A stretch of 60,853 nucleotides of DNA, from positions 1 through 60,853 of the IMG/VR virus record IMGVR_UViG_3300036987_000332, one strand, 5' to 3'. Source of the stretch: a virus. Lineage: Duplodnaviria > Caudoviricetes. The notes below the pieces were generated by a model. That model searched no databases, was not told the origin of the DNA, and saw only the letters and a list, made by a program, of their open reading frames with translations. The position numbers and the translations under genes were made by a program. Within the stretch, counting starts at the first letter, position 1. Each line of letters opens with the position of its first letter. Shown here piece by piece: positions 12,599 to 27,148 of this stretch.

Positions 12599-14173
12599 TC
12601 ACCCTGCAACCTCCGAACCATTCTTGAACCTAAACATCAATCCGCCATCAGCCATGACCGTTACCCTGTCAACGGCTACCGCCCAGAGCCGATCGTCAAA
12701 CTCAGTAATGACCAGTGGCCGAGACTCAATTTCTCGGATGAAGCCGTCAAGGATCAAATTTTTTGTTTTCCGAGCTCGCTTCATGTCCTCCAACTCTGAG
12801 ACGCGAACCTTAGCCTTGCGGTACCGATCCAGATATCCGTTATTCCGTTCGTTAAATGTATCCTGACTCTGGGCAACGCGGGCGTTATCGTGGATTGCTT
12901 TTCTGGACAACTCGGTGACTACCTTGATTTCACGATGGAGTTCATTAAGTCCAGAATCAATTTCTTTACAGTCACAGAGAGCCGTCTGGGCAAGCCGACA
13001 GTTGGCGATCAACTCCTCGCGGTCACCCATCAGGGTGTTAAAGGCAACGAGGAACTTCTGTTTGATCTCATCTTCTGTCAGATGCGGGGTCTGGCAGGGT
13101 TTTTCATGCTCATACTTTTCATTGCATCGCCAGATAACCCGGCGGTATTTGGAGGTGCTCGCCCAGACCTTAGCGCCGAAATAGCCGCCGCATTCGCCGC
13201 AGACTATCTTTGCGGAAAATGGACTATTGCTGCTGATCGGCCGACCGAGATTCTTGCGCCGTTCGATTTCTGCCTGGACAGAGTCAAACTCATCCGGATC
13301 GATGATTGCGGGATGACTGCCTTGCACATAATATTGTGGAACCTCACCTTCGTTGGCCTTTATGACTTTTGTGAGGAAATCCACCGTGAATTTCTTCTGA
13401 AGAAGCGCATCGCCTTTGTACTTTTCATTGGAAAGGATACTTTTAATGGTAGCAACCTGCCATACTTTTTTGCCGGCAGGTGAGGGGATACCCTGATCAA
13501 CGAGGAATTTTGCGATGGATGAAGGTGTTTGTCCTTCCATGAAGCGCCGAAAAATCATGCGAATTATTTTGGCTTCGGTTTCGACAATCCTGGGAAAGCC
13601 ATCCTCGCCTTTTTCATAGCCAAGGAAATGGGCGTAGGGGAGACTGATCTTTCCGTCAGCCATACGCTTTCGCTGACCCCAGGTCACATTTTCAGAAATG
13701 GAGCGGCTTTCTTCCTGAGCCAGGCTGGACATGATCGTGATCAACAGTTCCCCCTTGCTGTCCAGCGTGTAAATGTTTTCCTTTTCGAAAAAGACCTCGA
13801 CGCCTTTTTCTTTGAGTTTTCTCACCGTAACCAAAGAGTCCACCGTATTTCTGGCAAATCGGCTGACAGACTTGGTAACGATCAGATCGATTTTTCCATC
13901 CAGAGCGTCAACAATCATCTGGTTAAAGCCATCGCGCTTCTTGGTATTCGTGGCGCTGATGCCTTCGTCAGTATAAATCCCGACATAGTCCAAATCGGGT
14001 CGTTGCTGGATGAGCTTGGTGTAATAATCAACCTGTGCCTCATAGCTTGTAAGCTGTTCCTCACTGTCAGTAGAAACCCTGGCATAGGCAGCCGTTTTTC
14101 GATTCGTGGACTGCCGCGGATCACGAGTCATGTGCTTATCCCTTGATGCCGGGATTACCCTAACATTAGCCAT
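12599..14173 (-). CDS. Large serine recombinase (resolvase + recombinase + Zn ribbon + coiled coil)
   Basis: AAYARVST catalytic Ser, TKSVSRFARN, LAQEESRSISEN, CGECG. Confidence 0.95.
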   Translation of the reverse strand: MANVRVIPASRDKHMTRDPRQSTNRKTAAYARVSTDSEEQLTSYEAQVDYYTKLIQQRPDLDYVGIYTDEGISATNTKKRDGFNQMIVDALDGKIDLIVTKSVSRFARNTVDSLVTVRKLKEKGVEVFFEKENIYTLDSKGELLITIMSSLAQEESRSISENVTWGQRKRMADGKISLPYAHFLGYEKGEDGFPRIVETEAKIIRMIFRRFMEGQTPSSIAKFLVDQGIPSPAGKKVWQVATIKSILSNEKYKGDALLQKKFTVDFLTKVIKANEGEVPQYYVQGSHPAIIDPDEFDSVQAEIERRKNLGRPISSNSPFSAKIVCGECGGYFGAKVWASTSKYRRVIWRCNEKYEHEKPCQTPHLTEDEIKQKFLVAFNTLMGDREELIANCRLAQTALCDCKEIDSGLNELHREIKVVTELSRKAIHDNARVAQSQDTFNERNNGYLDRYRKAKVRVSELEDMKRARKTKNLILDGFIREIESRPLVITEFDDRLWAVAVDRVTVMADGGLMFRFKNGSEVAG

Positions 14174-14177
14174 TTCT

Positions 14178-15482
14178 TCATCGTTCCTTTCTTTTCATGC
14201 GAGCCTTCGCCTTCATATCGTTTGTCCAGCTTTCGCTGCGTGACCGGTATTTCCAAGTGCGTGATATCCTTGAACCATCTTTGATTACAAACTCAACAGT
14301 GCCATTCTGAGGAACATATATGCCTGAAATATTCTCGGGAAAAACAATCGGATCATATTGGTCTAGCCCGAGTACTTCCGCAGAAAGCTGCTTGAGCACC
14401 TCTTCAGGAATTGGCTTTATGCTGCAACAGTCTGTTCCTTCAGTATTATAGGTCGAACATACCCACTTATAACTTACATACTTTGTTCCGGCATTACAGA
14501 GTTTCCTTCGGAAATAACTGCCGCATGAGCAGCACTGGATTTTGCTGGTGAACTCCGAGAACACCGGTGTTTGGGGAAAAGGCATGTATTTTTTCTCGCG
14601 ATTCGCTATTTCTTTCTGCACTTCATCGAAAAAACTCTGAGAGATTATGGCTTCATGCGAGTCTTCTACATAGAACTGCGGATATTCACCGTTATTGTAT
14701 ATTTTCGTCTTGGACAAATGATCCTTGATATATGTCTTTTGTAGTAGCAGGTTACCGGTATATTTTTCATCCCGAAGAATGGTGTGGATAGTGCTGATCA
14801 TCCATTTGCCGTTTGATTTTGTTGGACTATTAAGAGCCCGAAGTTTTCGGACGATCGCGTTTTTACCCATACCACCCAGATAATCCGTAAAAATCATCTT
14901 CACTATCGCCGCTTCATTCGGGTTGATGACGAGCTGACCGTCTGAGAGGTCATAACCCAATATCCTCAAATTCCCCGGTCTACCGTTTTTGAAATTCTGT
15001 CGAACTCGCCATTTGCAGTTTTCGCTTACAGATAGGCTTTCCTCTTGCGCATAGGATGCGAGAATCGTGAGCAATAATTCACCATCTCCGCTCATGGAAT
15101 GGATATTCTGCTCTTCAAAATACACATCAACACCGATTGCTTTCAGTTCCCGAACGGTTTCTAGCAGCGTGACGGTGTTTCGGGCAAAGCGTGAGATTGA
15201 TTTTGTAATGACCTTTTCGATGAGCCCGCTCTTACAATCGCTCAACATTCGTTGAAATTCAGGCCTGTTTTCCTTTGTTCCCGTCATGGCTTCATCAGCA
15301 TACACACCCGCAAACTCCCATTCGGGATGAACCTGAATCAGGTTTTGATAATAACTGACTTGGGCAGCAAGCGAATGAAGCATGGCATCCTTTTCGCTCG
15401 ATACCCTGGCATATGCAGCAACTTTACATCTGGTAGGGAACTGGCTTGTCGATATTAGTATTTTTGTAATTATTTTATTCAT
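14178..15482 (-). CDS. Large serine recombinase
   Basis: AAYARVSS, TKSISRFARN, YAQEESLSVSEN, CCSCG; start at MNKII (15482). Confidence 0.95.
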   Translation of the reverse strand: MNKIITKILISTSQFPTRCKVAAYARVSSEKDAMLHSLAAQVSYYQNLIQVHPEWEFAGVYADEAMTGTKENRPEFQRMLSDCKSGLIEKVITKSISRFARNTVTLLETVRELKAIGVDVYFEEQNIHSMSGDGELLLTILASYAQEESLSVSENCKWRVRQNFKNGRPGNLRILGYDLSDGQLVINPNEAAIVKMIFTDYLGGMGKNAIVRKLRALNSPTKSNGKWMISTIHTILRDEKYTGNLLLQKTYIKDHLSKTKIYNNGEYPQFYVEDSHEAIISQSFFDEVQKEIANREKKYMPFPQTPVFSEFTSKIQCCSCGSYFRRKLCNAGTKYVSYKWVCSTYNTEGTDCCSIKPIPEEVLKQLSAEVLGLDQYDPIVFPENISGIYVPQNGTVEFVIKDGSRISRTWKYRSRSESWTNDMKAKARMKRKER

Positions 15483-15502
15483 CAGAAGCCCACCTCGTAG
15501 TG

Positions 15503-15533
15503 ATATATTCGCTCTGTGAAGAAGGGTTATCAA
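15503..15533 (-). promoter_or_regulatory. Motif A promoter-like element (TTGATA-N12-AGAGCGAATATAT) upstream of the recombinase
   Basis: Same architecture as the copies at 37176, 38646 and 40013. Confidence 0.6.
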
Positions 15534-15694
15534 GTAATACTGCGATATATACTGCACGAAGAAATGGCGTATTTTTGGGCAACAATGGTATCAATTCTCA
15601 TCAGTTCATCCTCATTGATGATTCCCTGCGAATGCCACTTTATGAAGATCGAAAGCGCTGCTTTGTAGTGAATGATGGCCAACTCTCTAGTCAT
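15530..15694 (-). CDS. Small SHOCT-like protein of the recombinase module
   Basis: MTRELAIIHYKAA…QGIINEDEL…; usual position before tandem serine recombinases; overlaps the upstream stop. Confidence 0.7.
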   Translation of the reverse strand: MTRELAIIHYKAALSIFIKWHSQGIINEDELMRIDTIVAQKYAISSCSIYRSIT

Positions 15695-17716: not shown

Positions 17717-18010
17717 CTAAATTTCTTTTGCCCCGGCAAACTCAGGAATTTCCGCTGCAAGCCGCTTGTAAATATCCGCCCTCGTGTAGCCCAGCTCATC
17801 GTTTGCAGCTAAATACACTTCCCTATAGGCATTGGACAAGGTTTGCCCTCCTTCCATCTTTTCTCGATCCCTGTATGTTTCATCGGCATAACCCAGAAGC
17901 TGAACCGTGATCACGGGTACATCCGTCATATACTGCTCAATGATCGCCGTTACACGGAAGTAGGTAGCCGTTACACCGCGTTCGTCTGTGATTGTTTTTT
18001 GTAGTGCCAT
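17717..18010 (-). CDS. Hypothetical tail-fibre-associated protein (chaperone-like)
   Basis: MALQKTITDERGVTATYFRV…; RBS AGGAGG; directly after the fibre gene. Confidence 0.7.
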   Translation of the reverse strand: MALQKTITDERGVTATYFRVTAIIEQYMTDVPVITVQLLGYADETYRDREKMEGGQTLSNAYREVYLAANDELGYTRADIYKRLAAEIPEFAGAKEI

Positions 18011-18023
18011 CAAATCTCCCTCC

Positions 18024-19469
18024 TTAAACCAGAACAGCAAACCAGTTCGCGCTGATATTAGAAAAGCCTGACCCGCCGATCGTCGCCTGAAAGCCTGTTG
18101 TTGTGATATTCCTGATTTTGAGTGCACCAATATCACCGGTAAAATCGTGCGTGTACTGGCCAAACACCCTGGGTGCGGAAGGAAAGGTTTTCCCGAACGA
18201 AACAGACGCCCAGGATGCGGTTGTCAGCGTCATTGCCCCTGCTGCCCAACAGGTATTGGTGCCGATGGTCAGCTTATTGAAGTACCCTTCCAAAGCATGA
18301 ACCGCCTGCCACCGCCTGGTTGTCGTGCCGCACCGGTCGTTATTGTCCGCGTGCGGCTCTACACGCCAGCAGGAGACAACGCCGTCCGCAGCAATAGCGC
18401 CGCTGGTTAGCGCTCCACACGAGAGTGGGTGCCCGTTCATCGTAACTGTGCCCCAAAACCGGTGTGTTGCCGATGTGCTGCCTGTGCTGCCCCAGTCGAT
18501 CAGGTAAGCTGTATGCAAATTACTGCTAACCAGTTTAGCGAAATTGATCGTCTTTGCTCCTGCCGCCGCAGTAATCCATGGCCCGGTAGGACCTGCTGTC
18601 TGAATCGAAAAATAACCAAGTTCAACACCAGAACTGGATAGCTTGACAGCACCCGCATCGAGCTTGGCCAGATAGCTTCCGGCTAAGGCTTCAAACGAGC
18701 CTTTCGCGGTCAGGCTCGTACCATTCCAGGCCAGTGCGCCATTCCCGAACGAAAACTGACCGTTGGCCAGGCTGATCCAGGAATTCCCCGTGGCTGACTG
18801 CAACGTCCCGGTGGTGACCTTGCCCGCATCAAGGCTGGCGATCTTGGCCGACTGGATGGTGGCATCTGCAATCTTGGCGTTGGTGATCGCCGCATCAGCA
18901 ATGATGCCGCTTGCTGCCGTGATCGTGCCAGTCACCAGCTTATTGGCTGTTATGGTTGCCGCCGCAATCTTGTCGCTCGTGATCGCACCTGCTACAATCT
19001 TGTCTGCCGTAATGGCACCTGCCGCGATCGCTTCAGCGCCTATGGCATTAGCTGCAACAGTTCCTGCCGTGATCGCGTTTGTCGCAACCTTGCCGGCTAT
19101 GACAGAATTGGCTGCCAGTTCGCTGGCTGAGATGGCGCCTGCTGCGATCTCGTTGCCGGTGATGGTATTGGCTGCGATCGCCGCAGCGAAGATCGAGCCA
19201 GGCACGATCAGGCCGCCGTCAAGGATGGTTGCAGTGGGTACAACCATCGCAATGCCTGACTTATTAAGAAATACCAGGACATCTGCTGAGGTCAGCGCTG
19301 GGAAAGTGTCTGACACAACAAAATAACTCGGGCTTGAGGCCAGCCAGTACACATAGGTATAGTTCGTGTAGCCGTTGGCGATAGCGTAGGATACGCCATT
19401 ATACTGGATATTGACGCTGCTCCACTGGATATACCCGGCAGATGGTGAGTTATTCAGAATGGAATACAT
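18024..19469 (-). CDS. Tail fibre / receptor-binding protein with decapeptide repeats and C-terminal H-lectin/gp53-like domain
   Basis: (GAITADKIAA)n repeats, PHADNNDRCG…RW motif, VSFGKTFPSAPRVF…NITTTGF…NWFAV. Confidence 0.8.
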   Translation of the reverse strand: MYSILNNSPSAGYIQWSSVNIQYNGVSYAIANGYTNYTYVYWLASSPSYFVVSDTFPALTSADVLVFLNKSGIAMVVPTATILDGGLIVPGSIFAAAIAANTITGNEIAAGAISASELAANSVIAGKVATNAITAGTVAANAIGAEAIAAGAITADKIVAGAITSDKIAAATITANKLVTGTITAASGIIADAAITNAKIADATIQSAKIASLDAGKVTTGTLQSATGNSWISLANGQFSFGNGALAWNGTSLTAKGSFEALAGSYLAKLDAGAVKLSSSGVELGYFSIQTAGPTGPWITAAAGAKTINFAKLVSSNLHTAYLIDWGSTGSTSATHRFWGTVTMNGHPLSCGALTSGAIAADGVVSCWRVEPHADNNDRCGTTTRRWQAVHALEGYFNKLTIGTNTCWAAGAMTLTTASWASVSFGKTFPSAPRVFGQYTHDFTGDIGALKIRNITTTGFQATIGGSGFSNISANWFAVLV

Positions 19470-19493
19470 AAATGGTCACCTCTTTCACCTGCC

Positions 19494-20459
19494 TTAGAAC
19501 AGGAGGTGCGAGGCGATCGACAGCTTATCAGTGGCTACCTGACCTGCCCCGATCTTTGCGCCGATGACGGCTCCGTCGGCCAACTGTGTGCTGCCGATCG
19601 CACCTGTTGCAACCGCCGCTGTTGTAACAGCTCCTGATGCGAGTGCAGCGGATGTAACAGCACCTGACGCGAGTTTTCCTGACGTTACGGCGCTTGTCGC
19701 GATCTTTGTCTCCGTTACCGCGCTCGAGGCAATTTTCGTGTCGGTTACTGCATTGCTGGCTAGCTGTGTGCTGCCTACTGCACTCGAACCGATTTTAGCC
19801 GTAGTGACTGCCCCGGACCCGATCTTTGTCTCTGTTACGGCACCACTGGCAATATTGCCCGCCTGTACAGCGTCCGTTGCCAAGAGTCCGTTCGTAATCG
19901 CAGCGGAAGCGATCTTGGCTGTGGTGACTGCCCCGGACCCGATCTCACCCGAGCCGATCGTACCGTCCAGCAGGGTCGAACCATCGACCATGCGTCCTTC
20001 GCCGATCACCAACTGGTGCACACCGTCGTTATTGACGCAGATCAGGATATCGTCATCCGTGAGGGTCGGTTTGGTCGCAGAATTCTTGAACGTAGTCGGT
20101 GTCGTAGCCAGCGTCCAATACACATACTTCGCGGTGGTATTGCCGTTTGTGATCGTGTATTTGGTTCCCTTATACATAATGTTACAGTCCGCCCAGGCAA
20201 TGCTGCCTGCCGACGGCGAGTTGTCCGTGATGGTAAACCCGTCCAGCATGGGTCTCGACAGGTGCAGCATCTCGGATGTGACCCGATGTGGCAGCCCTGC
20301 TTGCAATAGCCCCATGTTCATCAGGCTGTCGATGCGGTAGGTGATGTCCAGAAGGACAGACTTGAACCCTTCTGTGAACGCACGGTTGACGGCCGATTCG
20401 ACGGTTCTTTCAATTACGGACTGGACCCGGTTGTTGGTTAGCTTGATTCGTTTTTTCAT
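19494..20459 (-). CDS. Tail fibre/stalk protein with decapeptide repeats
   Basis: Helical N-terminus, NSPSAG domain, (GAVTxxKIAS)n repeats, C-terminal HLLF. Confidence 0.75.
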   Translation of the reverse strand: MKKRIKLTNNRVQSVIERTVESAVNRAFTEGFKSVLLDITYRIDSLMNMGLLQAGLPHRVTSEMLHLSRPMLDGFTITDNSPSAGSIAWADCNIMYKGTKYTITNGNTTAKYVYWTLATTPTTFKNSATKPTLTDDDILICVNNDGVHQLVIGEGRMVDGSTLLDGTIGSGEIGSGAVTTAKIASAAITNGLLATDAVQAGNIASGAVTETKIGSGAVTTAKIGSSAVGSTQLASNAVTDTKIASSAVTETKIATSAVTSGKLASGAVTSAALASGAVTTAAVATGAIGSTQLADGAVIGAKIGAGQVATDKLSIASHLLF

Positions 20460-20474
20460 TTTATGGTTCCTCCT

Positions 20475-22250
20475 TTAAAATAACAGGTGTGTGGACCAGT
20501 TGACCTGGCTTTCCTTAATAGACCCATCAGCGATCTTCTCGGATGTGATGCTCCCGTTCATGAGGTGATCCGCGGTGATCGCTCCAACCGCTACCTTTTC
20601 TGCGGTGACAGCGCCGACGGATATCTTCTCAGTTGTGATTGCTCCATCGGCTATCCGCTGGCCGTTGATCGTGCCAACTGTCAGGTTATCCGCGTTCAGG
20701 TTGATGACATTGATACTCCCGGCATCGATCGTGCCCGCAGTGATCTTATTAGCGGTTAGGCCCACGATCTTGGCATCGGTGATGGATCCGTCCGCGATCT
20801 GGGCGGTTTCGACAGCGCTCGTCTCGATCAAGGCAGTAGTGATGGCACCAATGGCGATCTTGGCAGTGGTGATGGCCAGATCTGCGATCACGCCGCTTTC
20901 CGCAGTGATGGTGCCCGCTGCCAGTTTATCTGCGGTCAGGCTGTGCGCAGCGATGCGGTCTGCAGACAGTGTACCGGTGCTGATGAAATTAGCCACGATC
21001 TGGCCGTCCATGGTGATCGCTGTGGTGTATGGACCGCTATACCCGGTTGCTGAATAACTGAGTCCGCTTAGGTTCCAGCGCCAGACGCGGGTGGCCGTGT
21101 TGATGTCCGCCGTGTCCATGATCAGGATCTCGTATGGCTGGCTCTCTTCGTCATAGCGCAGAATGACATTCCCGTTCTCACCATTCATAACAAGCGCCGT
21201 CACCTGATCGATCGCCTCACTCAGTTCTGCCTTGGTGCTGCTGAGGATCTGACTGAGGTCCGCGATCTGCTTGGCATTAGTGCCGCTGTATTTGATCGGG
21301 CTATTGGAAAAGTCCGCCTTATTCTTTTCGGGGGTTAACGGGTACTCGACCAGGCGGACAATCCGCTGTATATCTGTGATCCGGTTTGTTTTATCGAAGA
21401 TCCTGACCCAATCGCCCAGCTGGAAATCCAAAATACTGTACTCTGGCCGGCTGCCGACAAGGTTTAGCACATCCACCCGAAACGCCACGCGTGGTCTACT
21501 CAGCACGTCCAGGACAGTCACCGCGTCATCGAAAAGCGCCTGAGCACTGGTATACCGCTCATCGATCCATTTGCGCTCGATAATCTTCCCTGTAAACTGC
21601 GTGTTGTCGATGTACGCCAGCCCGCCATTGACGGAAGCGATAGAAAGCCCGTCCTTGCCGTACGGGTAGAGCCTGGTTACCAGATCATAGGTGTCCGACT
21701 GGTAGTCGCTGTCCCTTAGGTTCAGTTCACTGTATACATACGCACCGCGATCCGTGCCGCGCTGGTTGTAAACCCTAATCGTCTTACTGAGGGTATCAAA
21801 CCAGACCTCCACGCCATACACAGCACAGCATTCCAGGATGATTTGATGTACTGAGACATTCGTCAGCTTCAAGGTCCGCAGCTTCGTGTTGGTGTCCACC
21901 AGCTGGTAGGTCCAGCCGGTTCCTGCGGTGATATCTGTAAGCACGGTGCTGATCGTAACCGAGCCGGATTCATACGTCAGGTATGCCTTACCACGCAGGC
22001 TGTCAACGTTCAGCTTGCCATAAACCTCATAGAAGTCCTTGTCACTAAAGTTGATTTCCTTGATCACATACTCATCTGTTTCAGACTGCAGGAAAAACTC
22101 CTGCTGCAGCTGCGAGCGCGGCAGCACGGACTTGGGCAGCTTGAACATGAGGAGCTTATCTGCAGTGGCCAGGTCCGATTCGATGGAGAGATCTTTGAAC
22201 TGGGTCAGGAGGGCAACCATCGCCCTGCTGCCATTTAATAGCTTGAGCAT
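20475..22250 (-). CDS. Tail spike/Tal (prophage endopeptidase-like) with C-terminal decapeptide repeats
   Basis: TRLYPYGKDGLSI, LGDWVRI, ILIMDT…VWRWNLSGL…AITMDGQIVA; repeats; C-terminal HLLF. Confidence 0.85.
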   Translation of the reverse strand: MLKLLNGSRAMVALLTQFKDLSIESDLATADKLLMFKLPKSVLPRSQLQQEFFLQSETDEYVIKEINFSDKDFYEVYGKLNVDSLRGKAYLTYESGSVTISTVLTDITAGTGWTYQLVDTNTKLRTLKLTNVSVHQIILECCAVYGVEVWFDTLSKTIRVYNQRGTDRGAYVYSELNLRDSDYQSDTYDLVTRLYPYGKDGLSIASVNGGLAYIDNTQFTGKIIERKWIDERYTSAQALFDDAVTVLDVLSRPRVAFRVDVLNLVGSRPEYSILDFQLGDWVRIFDKTNRITDIQRIVRLVEYPLTPEKNKADFSNSPIKYSGTNAKQIADLSQILSSTKAELSEAIDQVTALVMNGENGNVILRYDEESQPYEILIMDTADINTATRVWRWNLSGLSYSATGYSGPYTTAITMDGQIVANFISTGTLSADRIAAHSLTADKLAAGTITAESGVIADLAITTAKIAIGAITTALIETSAVETAQIADGSITDAKIVGLTANKITAGTIDAGSINVINLNADNLTVGTINGQRIADGAITTEKISVGAVTAEKVAVGAITADHLMNGSITSEKIADGSIKESQVNWSTHLLF

Positions 22251-22313
22251 GCTTGCCCCTCCTTATGTTTTTACGGTGTTTTTGACAAAGCAGTGTTAAT
22301 AAAACAAAGGATT

Positions 22314-22330
22314 TCAACCGACAGTTGACA
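22314..22330 (+). promoter_or_regulatory. Palindrome TCAAC-N5-GTTGA overlapping TTGACA (likely XRE operator and -35)
   Basis: Directly upstream of the XRE-methyltransferase moron. Confidence 0.5.
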
Positions 22331-22409
22331 TATCATCGAATAATTAAATTACAAATACATTGATTCTACTCCTTAATTCACTATAAAATAATACTTGGAG
22401 GGATTTGAT

Positions 22410-23537
22410 ATGATTGATAAAGTTGTAGTGGGCAATCGAATTGCGAAACTTCGTAAAGAACTTGGCTATTCCCAAGCTATTTTTGCTGGTAAGCTGAATG
22501 TTTCTACACAAGCTGTTTCAAAATGGGAAACAGGACTCGCTTTACCTGACATTGAAGTATTGCTTAACATTTCGTGGATTTCCAAATCTTCGATACACGC
22601 TATTCTAGATGGTGAGGATTTCATCGAACCTCAAATCGGCATTGACAGAGGATTATTGCATATTAGTAAATGTCTTGAATGTCCACAATGCCATGATAAA
22701 TTGAAAATGCATATTCCTATAAAACAGGATAAGCTGAAATTTTCATGCAATAACGGTCATAGCTATGATGTGGTAGATGGTGTTATTCATTTTGGTTCGC
22801 GCGAAATTAAAGGTGAGTTATGGTCTCTTTGGCTCAGAAACTATGAGCATTATCTGGAGGAGCAACACCACCCGGGAAATCCGCGATACTGGCAGGGTGA
22901 TCCTCATTACAGGGAGATAATGTGGCAGAGAATCGATAAAATTCGTCCGCGTATGATTCTTGATATTGCCTGCGGAACAGGTAGCGGTATTAAATACATT
23001 ATTGAACGCATTAACTGGCCAGTAACTATTATCATGACGGATTTAAGTCACAGAATATTAAAATGGAATCGAGTTTTCTATTCTAAAGAATGGAATAACC
23101 CATATGTTGATATGGTTTATTTAGCCTGTGATTGCGCGCACCTACCTTTGGCTGATAATTGTATTGATATTGTTTTTTCTAATGGCGGCTTTGAAAGTAT
23201 GCAGCATAAAATGATGGACGGCTTCTATGAAGGTTTCCGTGTCTTAAAATCTGGCGCACACGCCGTTTACAACATCAGTACAATTGACGACCATAATAGT
23301 GAGAACACAAAGAAATGGATTCAGCTTTTCACGAATCTTGACAACAGCTATCGTCCCGAAGAAGAAAATTTGTATAACATCAATCAGTGGTTATTAAAAT
23401 GCGAGAAGGCTGGTTATGGCAAGAATGAGGCTGTAAAAGTATACGGCGAACTGCCAGCTCCCACTGATGATATTTTTCCGTTTGAAAACGAAATCTTCCA
23501 ATGGATGGCAGAATACGTTATAGTGTCTCAAAAGTGA
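22410..23537 (+). CDS. XRE-HTH / Zn-ribbon / SAM methyltransferase fusion (moron)
   Basis: VSTQAVSKWETG HTH; CPQC…CNNGHSYD (RlmA-like Zn finger); LDIACGTG; RVLKSG. AT-rich and opposite to the tail genes. Confidence 0.85.
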   Translation: MIDKVVVGNRIAKLRKELGYSQAIFAGKLNVSTQAVSKWETGLALPDIEVLLNISWISKSSIHAILDGEDFIEPQIGIDRGLLHISKCLECPQCHDKLKMHIPIKQDKLKFSCNNGHSYDVVDGVIHFGSREIKGELWSLWLRNYEHYLEEQHHPGNPRYWQGDPHYREIMWQRIDKIRPRMILDIACGTGSGIKYIIERINWPVTIIMTDLSHRILKWNRVFYSKEWNNPYVDMVYLACDCAHLPLADNCIDIVFSNGGFESMQHKMMDGFYEGFRVLKSGAHAVYNISTIDDHNSENTKKWIQLFTNLDNSYRPEEENLYNINQWLLKCEKAGYGKNEAVKVYGELPAPTDDIFPFENEIFQWMAEYVIVSQK

Positions 23538-23630
23538 GATTATATTTTATATGCCTATTAGATTGCTTGAATTGGATTTAAAATACTGAATATTTTCACG
23601 TTTACCTCTTAACTTTCTCTAGCTGGTCTT

Positions 23631-24326
23631 TTAGTTAAAAATGGGATAATACTGGATCGTGATGTTGGCCGTCGTATGGCTAAAGATCAGTTCGGTTGTG
23701 CCAACAGGCAGTGCCGGCCAGGCAAAAGCGTTGTAGTTCCCTATATCGTTCACGTCATCTTTCAGGTAGCGGTAGAAGTACCCGTCGATCACATGCGGTT
23801 TATTGGCTGCAAGGTTATAAAGCCGGATTTCTGAGTTAAACCCCTGTATCACGAACTCTGAGATGGCCACGGTTGGTGTCACGGTGATCAGGCACGGCGA
23901 CGGCATGGCGCCAAGGCTAGTGATCGATTTCATGCCGATACCATTAGCGGTGATGATCACCTCGGGCAGGTAGGTCCTGTGACACAAAAGGTCAATCTCC
24001 AAAAGCCAGGCGCGAGCGGTCAGGCGTTTGGGCTCCGTCTTGCCTTTGAAGTGACAATCGTAGCGTTTGGGTAGGCCATCAAACACAAGTGTGCAGTCCA
24101 TGAGGGATCGGATCAGCGCTGAAAACTGGCTTTCTGTTTCAGCTTCCGAGGCTGCTTCCAGAAGGATCGTCAGCGTAATGTCCTTAAATCGCTGCTCTGT
24201 CCGCGAAAATACCGGGCTGGCTGCGCCGTCCAGCCAGTCGTATATCTGGACCACATCGTGGTTGGTGACCTGTTTGGATAGCAGCATCGCACCAAACACA
24301 GCAATATTGGTTCCGTTTATTGTCAT
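23631..24326 (-). CDS. Distal tail protein (Dit-like)
   Basis: Between TMP and Tal; size and C-terminal WPALPVG…I.YYPIF pattern fit. Confidence 0.75.
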   Translation of the reverse strand: MTINGTNIAVFGAMLLSKQVTNHDVVQIYDWLDGAASPVFSRTEQRFKDITLTILLEAASEAETESQFSALIRSLMDCTLVFDGLPKRYDCHFKGKTEPKRLTARAWLLEIDLLCHRTYLPEVIITANGIGMKSITSLGAMPSPCLITVTPTVAISEFVIQGFNSEIRLYNLAANKPHVIDGYFYRYLKDDVNDIGNYNAFAWPALPVGTTELIFSHTTANITIQYYPIFN

Positions 24327-24329
24327 GAA

Positions 24330-26858
24330 TCACACCCTCCTCACGGCCAGTTCCATCCTGTTCATAAAATATTCAATGTCGTCCCGGTCACGGAAGCTGT
24401 AATTGCCGTTCAGGTTGATCGTTGTGTTGTTGGCCACTGGCGCAGCTGCTTCATTTGCGCCATCCTTTTCAGATCCTATCGGCATTGTTTCCTGCCAGTT
24501 GAGCCCGGCGGTTGTGGACAAGTCCAGGTTGCCAAAAGCCGACATAGCGTCCGCTGTCAGCTGATTGACCGAACCCAGCACGCCCCGCGCTCCGTCCGTT
24601 ATACCCAGCGCCAGGCCCTGCGCGATGAAGTCGCCGAACCGCCTGGTCTCCTTGGACGGTGAGCCGATACCGAAAAATTTCCTTATAGCGCCTAGCACGT
24701 CTCCGGCAAAGCCCTTGATCTTATCCGTGAGCCAACTGAACTTGTCCCGGATGCCGGACCACAGCCCGGAGATCAGGTTTGCACCGATGTCCTTGATCCG
24801 GTAGAGCATATTCATAAAACCATTCTTCAATGAGTCCATGATCTGCGGGATCTTACTGACCAGCACAGGGATATTGGTTATCAGTGCGCCACCCAAGGCG
24901 ATGATGATCTGTAGCCCTGCATCGATGATCTTCGGCAGGTTTCTCATGATCGCCAGCACCAATTTTTCGATGATGACCGGGATCTTCTCCACCAGCCGCG
25001 GCAGCGCTTTGATCAGGCCCATCGCTACGGCAAGGATCAGCTCAATGCCGGCATCGAGCATGAGGTCGATGTTGTCCAGGAGCGTTTCCATGATCAGGAA
25101 TACTGCGTCAATAACGATCGGGATGAGCTGGGGTATGGTTTGCGTCAGGCCCTTGATCAGGCTGACCAGTAGCTGAATGCCGGCTCGGATGATGAGTGGC
25201 AGGTTAGCAATGATCGTATCCCCCAGCTGCTGGATCATGACCGGCAGCACAGCGATGAGCTGCGGAATGATCAGGTTCAAGCCGTCAAGTAGGCCCATGA
25301 ACAGTTGGACCCCGGCATCCACCAGAACAGGCAGCAGGATGGGAATCAGCGGGATGATGCTTGATACCAGCCCAGTCAAGCCGCCGAGCAGCGCCGGCAG
25401 CAGTGCGTTGATCAGCCCGGGCAGCGCCTCGCCTACGCTGGTGATCAGGGCAATCAGCACCGTATTGAACCCGTCAAGCAGGGTTGGTAGGGACAAAGCC
25501 AAAACATGAATGATGCCTGGCAGAACGTCTCTCACCTTGCCGCTGATCAGGCTGATCAGGTCCTCAAGGTTCTCCGAGAACTTGGTCGAAGCACCTTCTG
25601 TACCGGTCATGACCTCAGCCAGCCCAGTGAAGGTACCGGTCAGGGCCGGCATCGCTTCGTTGATGAGGCCGTTTAGGCCCTGTATGGTTGAGGTTACTGA
25701 TGGAAGTAGCGCCTGCCCGAACGATGAGGCGATGTTTTCCACCTGAAGCTTGGCAATACGCAGCTGATTGGCCAGCCCACCGGAGGTTGAAGCGAAGTCA
25801 CCCTGCACGTCCTTGGTCGCCTTGAGGATATAGTTGTAACGAAGAGTGGCCAGTTCCGCCTGTGACATGGACGCGATGGGTTTCTTGATCCCCTGCGCCA
25901 GTGCGAATGCTGCGAGGTTAGCCTGGCTCATGTTGATGCCCAGTTGCTTCAGCGGTTCCGTCTCTCCGGAAATACCGCTCCTTAGCTTATTGAACGCCTC
26001 TTCACCGTCCAGATTATAGAAGCTGGCCATGTCGCCGGCAAGACCGGTGAGGGTTGTGGACATATCCAAAACCGCATGATCCGTGAGGCCCGTTGATTTT
26101 AGCATGGCGCCCATGGTGCCGTTCATCTTCTTGGCGCTCAGTTCCGATAGCCCGAACGACACGGCCGCCTGTTTGGCCCAGACGTCGACCTTGGCAGCGC
26201 CGTCCTCACCAAAGGTCTTATTAACAACATTTTCCACTTCGCTCAAATCACTGGCCGTCTTGACACCCTTGATGCCAAACGCAGCCAGTGCCGTGCCGGC
26301 CGCACCAGCTGCCAGAGTATATAGCCCTAAGGCTTTCCCGGCACCCTGGACCGCGGTACCGACTACTTTAACACCGCCGACAGCCAGCTTGGCTGATGCT
26401 TCGCCGACTTTCTTGATGCCATTGGTGACAGGAGCTAGCTTGTCCAGCACGGCCTGGACCTTTTCCTTGACAGCAGTAAATGCGGTACCGATCACGGACA
26501 CGGACTTTTTTTCATCTTTCAGGCTGGACAGTTTGGTTTTGGTCGTTTCCAGCTCGCGCTGGAATGCGCGAAACTGCTCCGCGTCGATTGTGCCCGCGGC
26601 AAACTGTGCTTTCACCTGAGCCTGTGCTTTTTTCAAGGCGTCCAGTTTTTCCTTGGTCGCGGCGATTTCCTCTTTCAGGAGCTGGCTCTTCTGCGCAGTC
26701 AGCGTGATATTATTGGGATCCAGTTTCAGGCCCTTTTCCACCTGCTTTAGTTCGCTCTGCAGCCCCTTTGCAGTAGAATTAACGCTTTTTAAAGCCTTGT
26801 CGAGCGGCGCGGTATTTCCATTGATTTCGACCGTGATGCCCTTGATTCCTCTGGCCAT
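24330..26858 (-). CDS. Tail tape measure protein
   Basis: IKGITVEI.G.T..L.KAL, DMASFYN…EPLKQLGI, amphipathic repeats, FGIGSPSK; ATG at 26858. Confidence 0.92.
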   Translation of the reverse strand: MARGIKGITVEINGNTAPLDKALKSVNSTAKGLQSELKQVEKGLKLDPNNITLTAQKSQLLKEEIAATKEKLDALKKAQAQVKAQFAAGTIDAEQFRAFQRELETTKTKLSSLKDEKKSVSVIGTAFTAVKEKVQAVLDKLAPVTNGIKKVGEASAKLAVGGVKVVGTAVQGAGKALGLYTLAAGAAGTALAAFGIKGVKTASDLSEVENVVNKTFGEDGAAKVDVWAKQAAVSFGLSELSAKKMNGTMGAMLKSTGLTDHAVLDMSTTLTGLAGDMASFYNLDGEEAFNKLRSGISGETEPLKQLGINMSQANLAAFALAQGIKKPIASMSQAELATLRYNYILKATKDVQGDFASTSGGLANQLRIAKLQVENIASSFGQALLPSVTSTIQGLNGLINEAMPALTGTFTGLAEVMTGTEGASTKFSENLEDLISLISGKVRDVLPGIIHVLALSLPTLLDGFNTVLIALITSVGEALPGLINALLPALLGGLTGLVSSIIPLIPILLPVLVDAGVQLFMGLLDGLNLIIPQLIAVLPVMIQQLGDTIIANLPLIIRAGIQLLVSLIKGLTQTIPQLIPIVIDAVFLIMETLLDNIDLMLDAGIELILAVAMGLIKALPRLVEKIPVIIEKLVLAIMRNLPKIIDAGLQIIIALGGALITNIPVLVSKIPQIMDSLKNGFMNMLYRIKDIGANLISGLWSGIRDKFSWLTDKIKGFAGDVLGAIRKFFGIGSPSKETRRFGDFIAQGLALGITDGARGVLGSVNQLTADAMSAFGNLDLSTTAGLNWQETMPIGSEKDGANEAAAPVANNTTINLNGNYSFRDRDDIEYFMNRMELAVRRV

Positions 26859-26863
26859 ACCGC

Positions 26864-27148
26864 TCACCTCCTTTTGCGTCGGCCGTGCTTTTCACGAAGT
26901 GCCCCTCTATCCGGGGAGGTCTGGTCCATAATCCAGCACTGATCCAAGTATTTTCGGCCCTCTTCTGACTGCTCAAGCATAAACAAATAAGCATCCCGGC
27001 GCAGGGCCAGATACGCATCGAGGGGCAGATCACCGATTTCATGGAAATTCAGGCCTGTATGGTCATGGACCAGACGCTCCCACTCGGTCAGGCATCGGTA
27101 GTGTGACTGGGTTCCTGTGTCTGGGATGGAGGGGATTTGGCGTTTGGG
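26864..27148 (-). CDS. Tail assembly chaperone C-terminal part (gpGT-like), reached by -1 frameshift
   Basis: Open -1 frame with no RBS-linked start (…TEWERLVHDHTGLNFHEI…LRRDAY…EEGRKYLDQCW…PDRGALREK…) beginning at the slippery C CCA AAC (27148-27142). Confidence 0.8.
   Translation of the reverse strand, partial: PKRQIPSIPDTGTQSHYRCLTEWERLVHDHTGLNFHEIGDLPLDAYLALRRDAYLFMLEQSEEGRKYLDQCWIMDQTSPDRGALREKHGRRKRR

Follow-up and report, generated by a model that had tools for sequence, protein, structure and literature searches.

How are the separately encoded pieces of a phage tail-tip fibre held together end to end? The question is raised by three neighbouring genes, here Tal, P2 and P3, in the 60,853-nucleotide window analysed (the entire stretch of IMG/VR record IMGVR_UViG_3300036987_000332). 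A first-pass annotation had proposed that a peptide ending in HLLF, shared by the first two proteins, completes in trans the domain that opens the third. Comparison with relatives and structural modelling favour, with moderate confidence, a modified form of this proposal. Tal, P2 and P3 would be pieces of a segmented fibre joined head to tail without a covalent bond, with the C-terminal peptide as plug and a shoulder-like trimer as socket.

The three fibre proteins and their parts

All three genes of the tail-tip module lie on the minus strand and are preceded by Shine-Dalgarno-like sequences (3/3); their parts are collected in Table 1. Tal, encoded after TMP and Dit, matches Pfam PF06605 over residues 94-317 (E 4.4e-34; 118.7 bits against a cut-off of 31.3) and also TIGR01665 (E 5.3e-30; 104.7 bits against 26.75), both above cut-off. 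The C-termini of Tal (GSIKESQVNWSTHLLF, then stop) and P2 (GQVATDKLSIASHLLF, then stop) both read S/T-H-L-L-F and align in BLASTP through the common HLLF (E 6e-21), which bears out the shared ending seen by the first-pass annotation. Its description of the other two ends was likewise accurate. The internal connector of P2, HRVTSEMLHLSRPMLDG, abuts the start of the approximately 85-residue NSPSAG domain (FTITDNSPSAGSIAW...) without a gap, and P3 begins at Met1 with the same domain (MYSILNNSPSAGYIQW) and without the preceding segment. Because an in-frame stop lies three codons ahead of this Met, the start of P3 cannot be further upstream. Residues 75-317 of P2 and 2-227 of P3 are 35% identical (BLASTP, E 1e-31). 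Homologues of P2 number 788 at E<=1e-5, and in an alignment of 16 homologues residues L36, D38 and R42 of the N-terminal helix are invariant.

The C-terminal part of P3 is presumed to be the receptor-binding head, given its position and the variable C-termini of the family. Its residues 421-479 resemble H_lectin (PF09458; E 4.4e-4) at 20.8 bits, below the gathering cut-off of 24, and the C-terminal half is modelled by AlphaFold2 at low confidence, with pLDDT <50 over the H_lectin-matching part.

Table 1. Parts of the tail-tip fibre module and its upstream neighbour, with positions in the window
Feature	Position	Strand	Content or basis
Tal, tail-associated protein, 591 aa	20475..22250	-	Prophage_tail domain N-terminal, decapeptide repeats, C-terminal tail
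Tal decapeptide-repeat stalk, about residues 414-575	20526..21011	-	BLASTP against P2 repeats, E 6e-21; PHROG tail-fibre families match
Tal C-terminal connector, candidate plug, GSIKESQVNWSTHLLF	20478..20525	-	same tail type in relatives; cis-fused to domain in P0150 and P0094
P2, adaptor fibre, 321 aa	19494..20459	-	helix, cis connector, domain, repeats, tail; AlphaFold2 model
P2 N-terminal long helix, residues 6-53	20301..20444	-	AlphaFold2 model secondary structure
P2 cis connector HRVTSEMLHLSRPMLDG, residues 58-74	20238..20288	-	translation, alignment, model
P2 NSPSAG (shoulder-like) domain, residues 75-160	19980..20237	-	HMM match E 3e-43; pLDDT about 80-90
P2 decapeptide-repeat stalk, residues 161-305	19545..19979	-	BLASTP, alignment of homologues
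P2 C-terminal connector, candidate plug, GQVATDKLSIASHLLF	19497..19544	-	translation; homologue alignment
P3, terminal fibre, 481 aa	18024..19469	-	domain at Met1, repeats, variable C-terminal part; AlphaFold2 model
P3 N-terminal NSPSAG (shoulder-like) domain, proposed socket, residues 1-85	19215..19469	-	pLDDT 92-97; fold matches
P3 decapeptide-repeat stalk, about residues 86-230	18780..19214	-	BLASTP, AlphaFold2 model
P3 C-terminal part, presumed receptor-binding head	18027..18779	-	weak evidence: position, variable family C-termini
Dit, distal tail protein, upstream neighbour of the module	23631..24326	-	phrog_33 E 1.8e-13; weak SPP1_Dit match

Covalent and proposed split forms of the junction

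In single-chain fibres the connector stands directly ahead of the domain, in the order repeats, connector, domain, repeats, and internal domain copies typically follow a repeat and a connector (for example EKIKVESHFVEG/LTLTNNSPSAG and AKLTIASHFVDN/LVLTNDSPSA, the slash marking the start of the domain). Two such fibres, P0005 (1358 aa) and P0015 (829 aa, with the 845-aa ORF of L018 as a relative), are true homologues in which one chain repeats the same connector motif, followed by the same domain, as many as three or four times. These homologues are covalent, whereas the split module has a chain end where they have turn residues (D/E-G, D-N), and the His and aromatic residue of the connector are less conserved in them. 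Furthermore, in two natural fusions a tail-bearing protein runs on into a domain-bearing fibre, exactly at the junction. P0150 reads ...EAKMKWSTHLLTY/ASIADNSPQLG at this point, and residues 1-125 of P0094, directly after which the domain begins, align with the entire length of a tail-bearing protein of L048, 141 aa long (39% identity, E 2e-24). In cis relatives the connector motif comes immediately before the domain; in split relatives it closes the upstream protein, and the order of tail, then domain, is kept in distant lineages.

Relatives from Clostridia and an actinobacterium, 30-60% identical, have the three-gene layout as well, as does the cultured Terrisporobacter phage TVCOM_ph1. The first protein of TVCOM_ph1 ends in SSHMLF, the second reads ASHMLDG/YVIEDNKPTTG internally and ends in AAHIIF, and the third starts with MSFTIQNNTPSAG. 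The triple is kept in all five prophage loci from named genomes (a Clostridiales MAG, a 'Spirochaetales' MAG, Terrisporobacter, Fonticella and Pseudarthrobacter). If tail and domain belong together, H-x-x-[FYLTC] termini should lie upstream of N-terminal domains and seldom apart from them. In a forward census of loci found via the domain (57 distinct copies), 17 of the 20 distinct N-terminal copies have an upstream ORF with this ending within 260 nt. A reverse census of loci found via the last repeat, not via the domain, yielded 10 new contigs, eight with the tail and six of these eight with the domain in the next gene. Such counts overstate independence, because most loci were found by searches seeded with the domain and many are closely related. 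Three lineages (L017, L021 and L033/L034) have an N-terminal domain gene without a tail upstream, so the domain can attach to something else.

The proposed joint would be the split form of the junction that is covalent in single-chain fibres. Its plug would be roughly the last ten residues of the stalk protein, with the consensus [K/R]-[L/M]-x-x-x-x-H-hydrophobic-hydrophobic-F/Y/W-COOH, and its socket the all-beta NSPSAG domain that opens the next fibre protein. In the P2 model, connector residues M71-D73 form a strand two residues ahead of the first strand of the domain (76-79), with D-G in between, so that the split would fall at a would-be hairpin turn. The tail may pair with the first strand of P3; alternatively, the axial cavity of the shoulder trimer may take up the three tails, as it does the Dit 'hand' in phage p2.

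While a functional junction of tail and domain is supported, the idea that the tail completes the domain is not. The P3 domain is modelled at pLDDT 92-97 without any connector. In L012/L013/L063 the third protein (GTG start, AGGA box 9 nt upstream) opens with its own cis connector MIPSLFLNINHHLIDG despite an upstream protein that still ends in HLLF. The third proteins of L048 and L051 begin with a large N-terminal extension, so that the domain is found only about 380 residues in, at residue 382 or 395. Since some lineages keep cis connector and tail together, fold completion is unsupported, and a simple filling of a vacancy by the tail is contradicted in several lineages.

The link from the P2 tail to the P3 domain is the surest, and the Tal tail would likewise fit a bare domain of the P3 type. 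Because P2 has its own cis connector, the Tal tail is left without an obvious empty site, and two arrangements can be considered. In the first, which is possible if tentative, the central Tal fibre and helix-anchored side fibres of P2 would each carry P3, as one adhesin on two stalks. Tal and P2 share the same tail end, no bare domain other than that of P3 is present in this phage, the fusions and the two-gene system of L016, where the Tal tail is joined directly to P3, match first-type tails with bare domains, and P2 has a helical N-terminal part of its own in the model, like anchored side fibres. In the second arrangement, about as tentative, a strict chain would run from Tal through P2 to P3, with P3 capping P2 in one long central fibre and the Tal tail seated on the P2 helix (L36/D38/R42) or beside the P2 cis connector. 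The gene order and the invariant helix residues agree with a chain, and the first tails vary more than the second (HILT, HFLC, and Y replacing H in L024), which hints at a different partner. However, in the fusions a first-tail protein is followed at once by a bare domain rather than by a P2-type helix, L016 does without such an intermediate, and the P2 domain is already supplied with a connector in cis. Lineages in which P3 is not bare fit neither arrangement cleanly.

Conservation of the tail peptide

The related loci, which overlap so that the counts are not independent, contain 614 ORFs with a length of 100 aa or more. Of these ORFs, 79 end in H-x-x-[FYLTC]; 78 of the 79 are fibre tails of this module, so the shared HLLF is more than chance. 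Within the best 120 of the 788 P2 homologues, an H-x-x-F/Y/W end is found on 93 of 101 domain-bearing proteins (F in 69, Y in 22, W in 2) and on none of 18 repeat-only relatives. The eight domain-bearing exceptions include fragments or frameshifted proteins and two that end in QLY or HVLA. This distribution supports a tail that is tied to the domain system and not to the repeats. His318 of P2 is invariant in all 16 aligned P2-like tails (its presence in 24/24 collected tails is by construction, since the collecting regex demanded it), and the final residue is aromatic in the homologues. By contrast, only 66 of 101 cis connectors have the His. Judged by their residues, trans tails are more tightly constrained than cis connectors.

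An invariant His and an aromatic end would also suit a tail that serves its own fibre, by capping the repeat stalk at its C-terminus or by nucleating its trimerisation (for instance through a His triad on the three-fold axis), with P3 mounted elsewhere, on Dit or on the N-terminal domain of Tal. The P3 domain that folds alone in its model, the lineages without a vacant site and the three lineages without an upstream tail are compatible with such a role. It is nevertheless improbable: as none of the 18 repeat-only homologues carries the tail, this repeat fold is not generally capped by it, tails also occur on proteins with just one or two repeats (470 aa in L014, 145 aa in L015), and the connector runs straight into the domain in single-chain fibres and fusions. 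Very improbable as a sole explanation are recombination linkers for the exchange of tail-fibre cassettes, with no contact between peptide and domain start: the mosaic make-up of tail-fibre genes, the highly varied C-termini of the proteins that open with the domain and the extra genes inserted at the module borders in L042 speak for them, but conservation is at the protein level across lineages at 30-60% identity with differing base composition (Clostridia, actinobacterium), megablast gave no DNA match in the phage collection, and the fixed His and aromatic end amid variable neighbours fit a structural constraint. Such linkers can be true in addition to the joint.

The shoulder-like domain and known attachment systems

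The NSPSAG domain matched 916 clusters at E<=1e-3. Among the 150 best representatives, the domain lies within residues 1-12 in 125, with lengths of 101-2039 aa, and internal copies occur in 24. A conserved N-terminal module on such diverse proteins is the usual signature of an attachment domain. The domain found no sequence match in Pfam, NCBIfam or PDB sequence searches, and its modelled structure no Foldseek match at E<=0.001. In the models of P2 and P3 it has nine or ten strands and no helix. The leading fold matches, which cover 74-87 residues and are all weak at Z<8, are the long-fibre shoulder of phage A-1(L), top for both models (Z 6.6 for P2, 6.4 for P3), SPP1 gp22 (5.5 and 4.6) and the RBP shoulders of p2 (5.3 and 5.2). 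The phage 1358 RBP, Mtd and the HFTV1 fibre were also matched by both independent models, and TssK, phi812 and IglD by the P3 model only. Nearly all matches covering the domain, each of them weak, are to shoulder attachment domains (phage RBPs, TssK). NSPSAG would be an autonomous, probably trimeric, shoulder-like attachment domain.

The T4 long tail fibre (gp34-gp35-gp36-gp37) is likewise built end to end from separate proteins of adjacent genes, trimeric or monomeric, which are joined head to tail without covalent bonds; we know of no motif or domain common to it and this module. According to PMC7291167, shoulder trimers of RBPs receive a loop of their partner, p2 and 1358 shoulders combine two four-stranded sheets with a long helix from each subunit, and TssK-TssG attachment in type VI secretion is homologous to the attachment of these shoulders to Dit. 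There too, the N-terminal beta domain of a trimeric RBP forms a socket for a short segment of the protein before it in the tail, the Dit 'arm and hand'; the fold match is weak (Z <7). However, the plug proposed here would consist of the outermost C-terminal residues of a trimeric fibre, set in line and three on three, whereas p2 and 1358 use a Dit loop, one on three, and the long helix of the p2 shoulder is absent from both NSPSAG models. The A-1(L) shoulder, residues Met1-Ile155 of the cyanophage long tail fibre gp34 (PDB 8KEC), owes part of its anchoring to a C-terminal loop of gp32 (PMC10966104). It aligns over 78-83 residues, at only 8-14% identity, and belongs to a myophage baseplate wedge, whereas a fibre-to-fibre joint is proposed here.

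Klebsiella podophages such as KP32 have, as described in PMC13352976, a branching domain and a conserved docking peptide on their RBPs, so that one RBP offers a dedicated domain to a short peptide of another and receptor-binding modules become exchangeable. In these phages of Gram-negatives, unlike those here, the secondary RBP carries the peptide at its N-terminus and the socket lies inside the primary RBP, which gives a branch; in the present module it is the upstream protein that ends in the conserved peptide, the downstream P3 opens with a folded domain in its model, and the junction would be end to end. The first-pass annotation did not recognise a described mechanism. Literature searches did not find this particular plug-and-domain joint, which itself appears to be undescribed, whereas the principle is known from loop-receiving shoulders and from docking peptides on branching domains (PMC7291167, PMC13352976).

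The joint would be a widespread version of a known way in which phages mount their host-recognition proteins. More speculatively, the same H-x-x-F/Y plug on the central Tal fibre and on helix-anchored P2 side fibres may be a portable standard connector that mounts one adhesin through its shoulder-like N-terminal domain. If so, hundreds of protein clusters from clostridial and actinobacterial phages would have the plug-and-socket pair in common, adhesin genes could transfer between phages and fit at once, and the binding energy that comes from the covalent turn in single-chain fibres would come from the invariant His and the aromatic carboxylate at the chain end.

The tail module and the borders of its fibre proteins

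The window, a viral record of 60.9 kb with an estimated completeness of about 90%, carries on its minus strand a siphovirus-type tail module, in which the tail-associated protein Tal is followed by the adaptor fibre P2 (321 aa) and the terminal fibre P3 (481 aa). The two adjacent large ORFs at its far end are, judged by eye, serine recombinase-like.

Coordinates of the tail module and of features discussed in the text; positions are those of the window unless a relative's contig (L039 to L051) is named
Feature	Position	Strand	Assignment or remark
Tape measure protein	24330-26867	minus	
Dit	23631-24326	minus	phrog_33, E 1.8e-13
Gene of 380 aa between Dit and Tal	22395-23537	plus	HTH_3, E 4e-9; SAM-methyltransferase domain Methyltransf_11, E 4.8e-11
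Tal (591 aa)	20475-22250	minus	Prophage_tail PF06605, E 4.4e-34; TIGR01665
Tal/P2 gap	20459-20477	minus	one TAA and five codons
P2, fibre gene	19494-20459	minus	
P2 helix, residues 6-53	20301-20444	minus	
P2/P3 gap	19470-19496	minus	TAA and two TGA in eight codons
P3, fibre gene	18024-19469	minus	
P3 repeats, residues ~95-200	18780-19214	minus	
Small ORF directly downstream of P3	~17717-18012	minus	weak phrog_5084 match (function unknown)
Holin-sized ORF (by size alone)	after P3 in the module list	minus	
Endolysin	after the holin-sized ORF, before the two large ORFs	minus	phrog_380, LysM
Pair of large neighbouring ORFs (524 and 459 aa)	12599-14173, 14178-15557	minus	phage-region end
Inserted ORF before the next fibre gene (368 aa), L042	3633-4739		P2-like gene on other side
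Inserted ORF before the next fibre gene, L039	3675-5704		P2-like gene on other side
Third-position fibre, L048	3629-7111		
Third-position fibre, L051	3615-6935		

The opposite-strand gene between Dit and Tal seems to be a moron, an accessory gene whose insertion interrupts the tail module, and the GC content is ~0.41 across 22001-24000 versus ~0.55 in the flanking tail genes. The small ORF downstream of P3 has its likely start, MALQKTITDERG..., 2 bases past the P3 stop, the start in the ORF listing being stretched too far, to 18163; a 59-aa ORF occupies the equivalent place in TVCOM_ph1, a cultured Terrisporobacter phage.

What the first-pass annotation had read from the sequences of Tal, P2 and P3 agrees exactly with their translations. 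Tal ends in ...KESQVNWSTHLLF and P2 in ...DKLSIASHLLF, while inside P2 the tail-like connector HRVTSEMLHLSRPMLDG directly abuts FTITDNSPSAGSIAW..., the start of the ~85-aa NSPSAG domain. P3 opens with this domain as MYSILNNSPSAGYIQW, its Met being preceded by an in-frame stop three codons before and by a ribosome-binding site upstream. Residues 75-317 of P2 align with residues 2-227 of P3 at 35% identity (E 1e-31), and the alignment of the C-terminal repeats of Tal and P2 reaches the common HLLF (E 6e-21). Near-identical DNA was absent from the phage collection.

All three genes lie in one reading frame, which we take as a coincidence, since the frame is not retained in relatives (L007, L012). 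Joining of the three proteins by read-through or frameshifting is rejected, given the stops between them, a ribosome-binding site for each gene and the differing frames in these two relatives.

Conservation of tail, connector and domain

The same three genes are found in TVCOM_ph1, where the first protein (461 aa) ends in ...NISSHMLF, the second (327 aa) contains ...LNLASHMLDG directly followed by YVIEDNKPTTG... and ends in ...NIAAHIIF, and the third (892 aa) begins with MSFTIQNNTPSAG. The triple is also kept in all five prophage loci from named genomes, the record titles of which are a Clostridiales MAG, a 'Spirochaetales' MAG, Terrisporobacter vanillatitrophus, Fonticella tunisiensis and Pseudarthrobacter siccitolerans. 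Among viral contigs, a scan seeded with the domain yielded 32 loci, and a local HMM of the domain recovered 57 distinct copies over all loci collected. This census covers a few dozen contigs, of which many are related to one another. An upstream ORF ending in H-x-x-[FYLTC] lies no more than 260 nt away from 17 of the 20 distinct N-terminal copies, the copies without one being those of L017, L021 and L033/L034. Grouped by lineage according to our own reading, the count becomes approximately 13 with an upstream tail versus 3 without, the lower number arising because several entries are closely related to the window. The motif is not frequent by chance: these loci, which overlap, contain 614 ORFs with a minimum length of 100 aa, of which it ends 79, and 78 of these 79 are fibre tails of the module.

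The reverse search addressed the possibility that such tails occur independently of a neighbouring domain, using as query the last repeat of six tails with the domain excluded from the pattern. It returned 23 loci, comprising 13 contigs known from before and 10 new ones, two of which matched internal repeats only. In six of the eight new contigs with a tail-bearing P2-like gene, the next gene has the domain: it opens with the domain in four (L043, L044, L045 and L050) and in two (L048 and L051) has it at residue 382 or 395, past a large N-terminal extension. In the other two, the related contigs L039 and L042, an inserted ORF is followed by a fibre-like gene running off the contig, and the P2-like frame of L039 is broken as well. 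This inserted ORF is a further accessory gene, at the border between the P2-like gene and the next fibre. The extension of the L048 and L051 fibres measures ~380 aa; that of L048 opens with M-P-V-T-A-S-F-T-R..., and a like motif, Q-T-A-T-F-T-R-N-S-V-A-Y..., recurs farther along the same protein, suggesting repeated binding modules.

Among the best 120 of the 788 P2 homologues, the domain is present in 101; a C-terminal H-x-x-F/Y/W is found in 93 of these 101 (F 69, Y 22, W 2) and in none of the 18 repeat-only matches. The tail therefore goes with the domain system rather than with the repeat fold. The domain itself matches 916 clusters (50% identity) with a cut-off of E<=1e-3 and 377 with one of E<=1e-10. 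For the best 150 of these 916, it lies within the first 12 residues in 125, exists only as internal copies in 24 and in both kinds in one, with protein lengths of 101-2039 aa and with the tail motif found as C-terminus in none. A typical internal copy follows one repeat and a tail-type connector, with up to four units per chain, as in EKIKVESHFVEG followed by LTLTNNSPSAG, AKLTIASHFVDN by LVLTNDSPSA, SKITSLAHMLVG by GTWTDNSPTG and DKLNIESHRITG by CSFSNDTPTT. A single-chain fibre (the 845-aa ORF of L018; cluster representative P0015) carries the domain three times, and ahead of the first copy stands a collagen-like G-x-y stretch (GPAGAKGLAG) instead of the usual repeat and connector.

Two natural fusions are also found. 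The cluster representative P0150 reads ...EAKMKWSTHLLTY directly into ASIADNSPQLG. Residues 1-125 of P0094 correspond to the tail-bearing L048 protein over all of its 141 aa (39% identity, E 2e-24), after which the chain runs on as ...QPQWATHALNKD and YTVINNSPLAG into the domain. Taken together with the cis forms, these fusions mean that the ends and starts of the split proteins coincide with a site that is continuous in relatives.

In 16 aligned P2-like proteins the final residue is F or Y, and two positions are invariant: the tail histidine (H318) and G74, which forms the turn of the cis connector. In the 24 collected tails histidine is the sole invariant column, although by construction, because the selecting regex demanded it. 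The cis connectors have histidine in 66 of 101 cases, P2 of the window having SRPM there instead. Judged from these alignments, tighter conservation of the histidine in trans fits a joint that would need extra binding energy once the chain is cut.

Fold of the domain and the proposed joint

The model of P2 (mean pLDDT 65.6) has a long helix near its N-terminus (residues 6-53), is poorly defined at residues 57-66 and forms a strand at M71-D73, two residues ahead of the first strand of the all-beta domain (76-150, pLDDT ~80-90). In the model of P3, built on a 68-row alignment, domain residues 1-76 reach pLDDT 92-97 with the connector absent and the repeats ~80-88, while confidence is low over the C-terminal half. 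The repeats adopt a three-residue helical turn per ten residues in this AlphaFold2 monomer, which says nothing on the shape of a trimeric stalk. The domain of P3 is thus an autonomous fold in the model, with the tail unnecessary for its completion. As some lineages furthermore have cis connectors, the earlier proposal that the HLLF tail completes the domain in trans is rejected as worded.

Sequence searches of Pfam, NCBIfam and PDB gave no match to the domain, the only match of P3 to PDB sequences being at chance level. Likewise, Foldseek of the P2 model against PDB returned nothing at E<=0.001, and a viral structure library matched the repeat part only. An exhaustive aligner paired the P2 and P3 models with the shoulder of the A-1(L) long fibre (Z 6.6 and 6.4), with the shoulders of the phage p2 receptor-binding protein (RBP; Z 5.3 and 5.2) and with SPP1 gp22 (Z 5.5 and 4.6). 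The phage 1358 RBP, Mtd and the HFTV1 fibre were also on the match lists of both models, while TssK, phi812 and IglD were matched by the P3 model only. All 13 aligner rows over the P3 domain are attachment ('shoulder') domains; this fold match is a lead and not proof, because every Z lies below 8. In phages p2 and 1358 and in TssK-TssG, a loop of the partner is received by the shoulder trimer (PMC7291167), and anchoring of the A-1(L) shoulder is due in part to the gp32 C-terminal loop (PMC10966104). The p2 shoulder has a long helix, whereas the NSPSAG domain is without it.

The best reading is that the fibres are joined head-to-tail and non-covalently: the plug would be the C-terminal peptide of a stalk, and the socket a trimer of the shoulder-like N-domain that heads the following protein. 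The core link to which we commit runs from the P2 tail to the domain of P3. The tail strand could pair with the first strand of P3, in which case the D-G turn site of the cis form would be the meeting point of chain end and Met1; alternatively, three tails would go into an axial cavity. We infer a trimeric state, metal binding and a receptor-binding role of the P3 head.

Against a simple picture of an 'empty slot' in the domain stand the cis connector of P2 itself, the internal position of the domain in L048 and L051, and the three lineages with an N-terminal domain and no upstream tail. In addition, the third protein of L012/L013/L063, which starts at a GTG nine bases past an AGGA box, opens with MIPSLFLNINHHLIDG, although its upstream neighbour ends in HLLF. 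A multimer prediction with three copies each of P3(1-120) and the last 60 residues of P2, run with separate alignments and without controls, scored 0.25 and 0.27, below the 0.32 mark, and counts neither for nor against binding.

Possible order of assembly and meaning of the proposed joint

Within head-to-tail joining, a strict chain from Tal through P2 to P3 and a mounting of P3 on two stalks, Tal as well as P2, are about equally likely. The chain follows the order of the genes, and the first tails are more variable. Furthermore, the helix of P2 holds the motif L-x-D-[IV]-x-[YF]-R-[IML], with L36, D38 and R42 invariant in 16 homologues (32-72% identity); these residues exceed what a plain coiled coil needs and thus mark a putative binding site, which the N-terminal helix of P2 may provide. 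Mounting on both stalks agrees with the bare domain being present in the window on P3 only, with the independent helical N-terminus of P2 and with fusions in which first-type tails are joined to bare domains. It also agrees with a two-gene version in L016, where the domain gene comes next after that of a 1299-aa protein ending in KLNVKIHMIL.

The principle is already established, with an attachment domain conserved at the N-terminus, a short segment of the partner as plug and fibres of several proteins. In open-access full text, no paper was found that has the tail motif together with 'phage', and none of the seven papers with any of four domain strings is about phages. The pair of motif and domain has no match in Pfam, NCBIfam or PDB sequences. 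The proposed joint would thus be a new form of the established principle; it is widespread and unannotated, is recognisable by a clear sequence signature and occurs naturally both split and fused.

If the joint is real, it would supply a simple sequence rule for the assembly of a large, unannotated group of Gram-positive phage fibres, the P2-type adaptor having 788 homologues at E<=1e-5: a protein ending in H-x-x-F/Y would be a stalk, and the next protein with an NSPSAG domain its cargo. Such a rule would lead to better annotation of the receptor-binding proteins encoded in viromes of gut and soil. It would also explain the mosaicism of fibre genes and pinpoint the exact border at which adhesins are naturally exchanged. 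The split and fused versions of one junction form a natural pair, useful for studies of the evolution of fibre joints.
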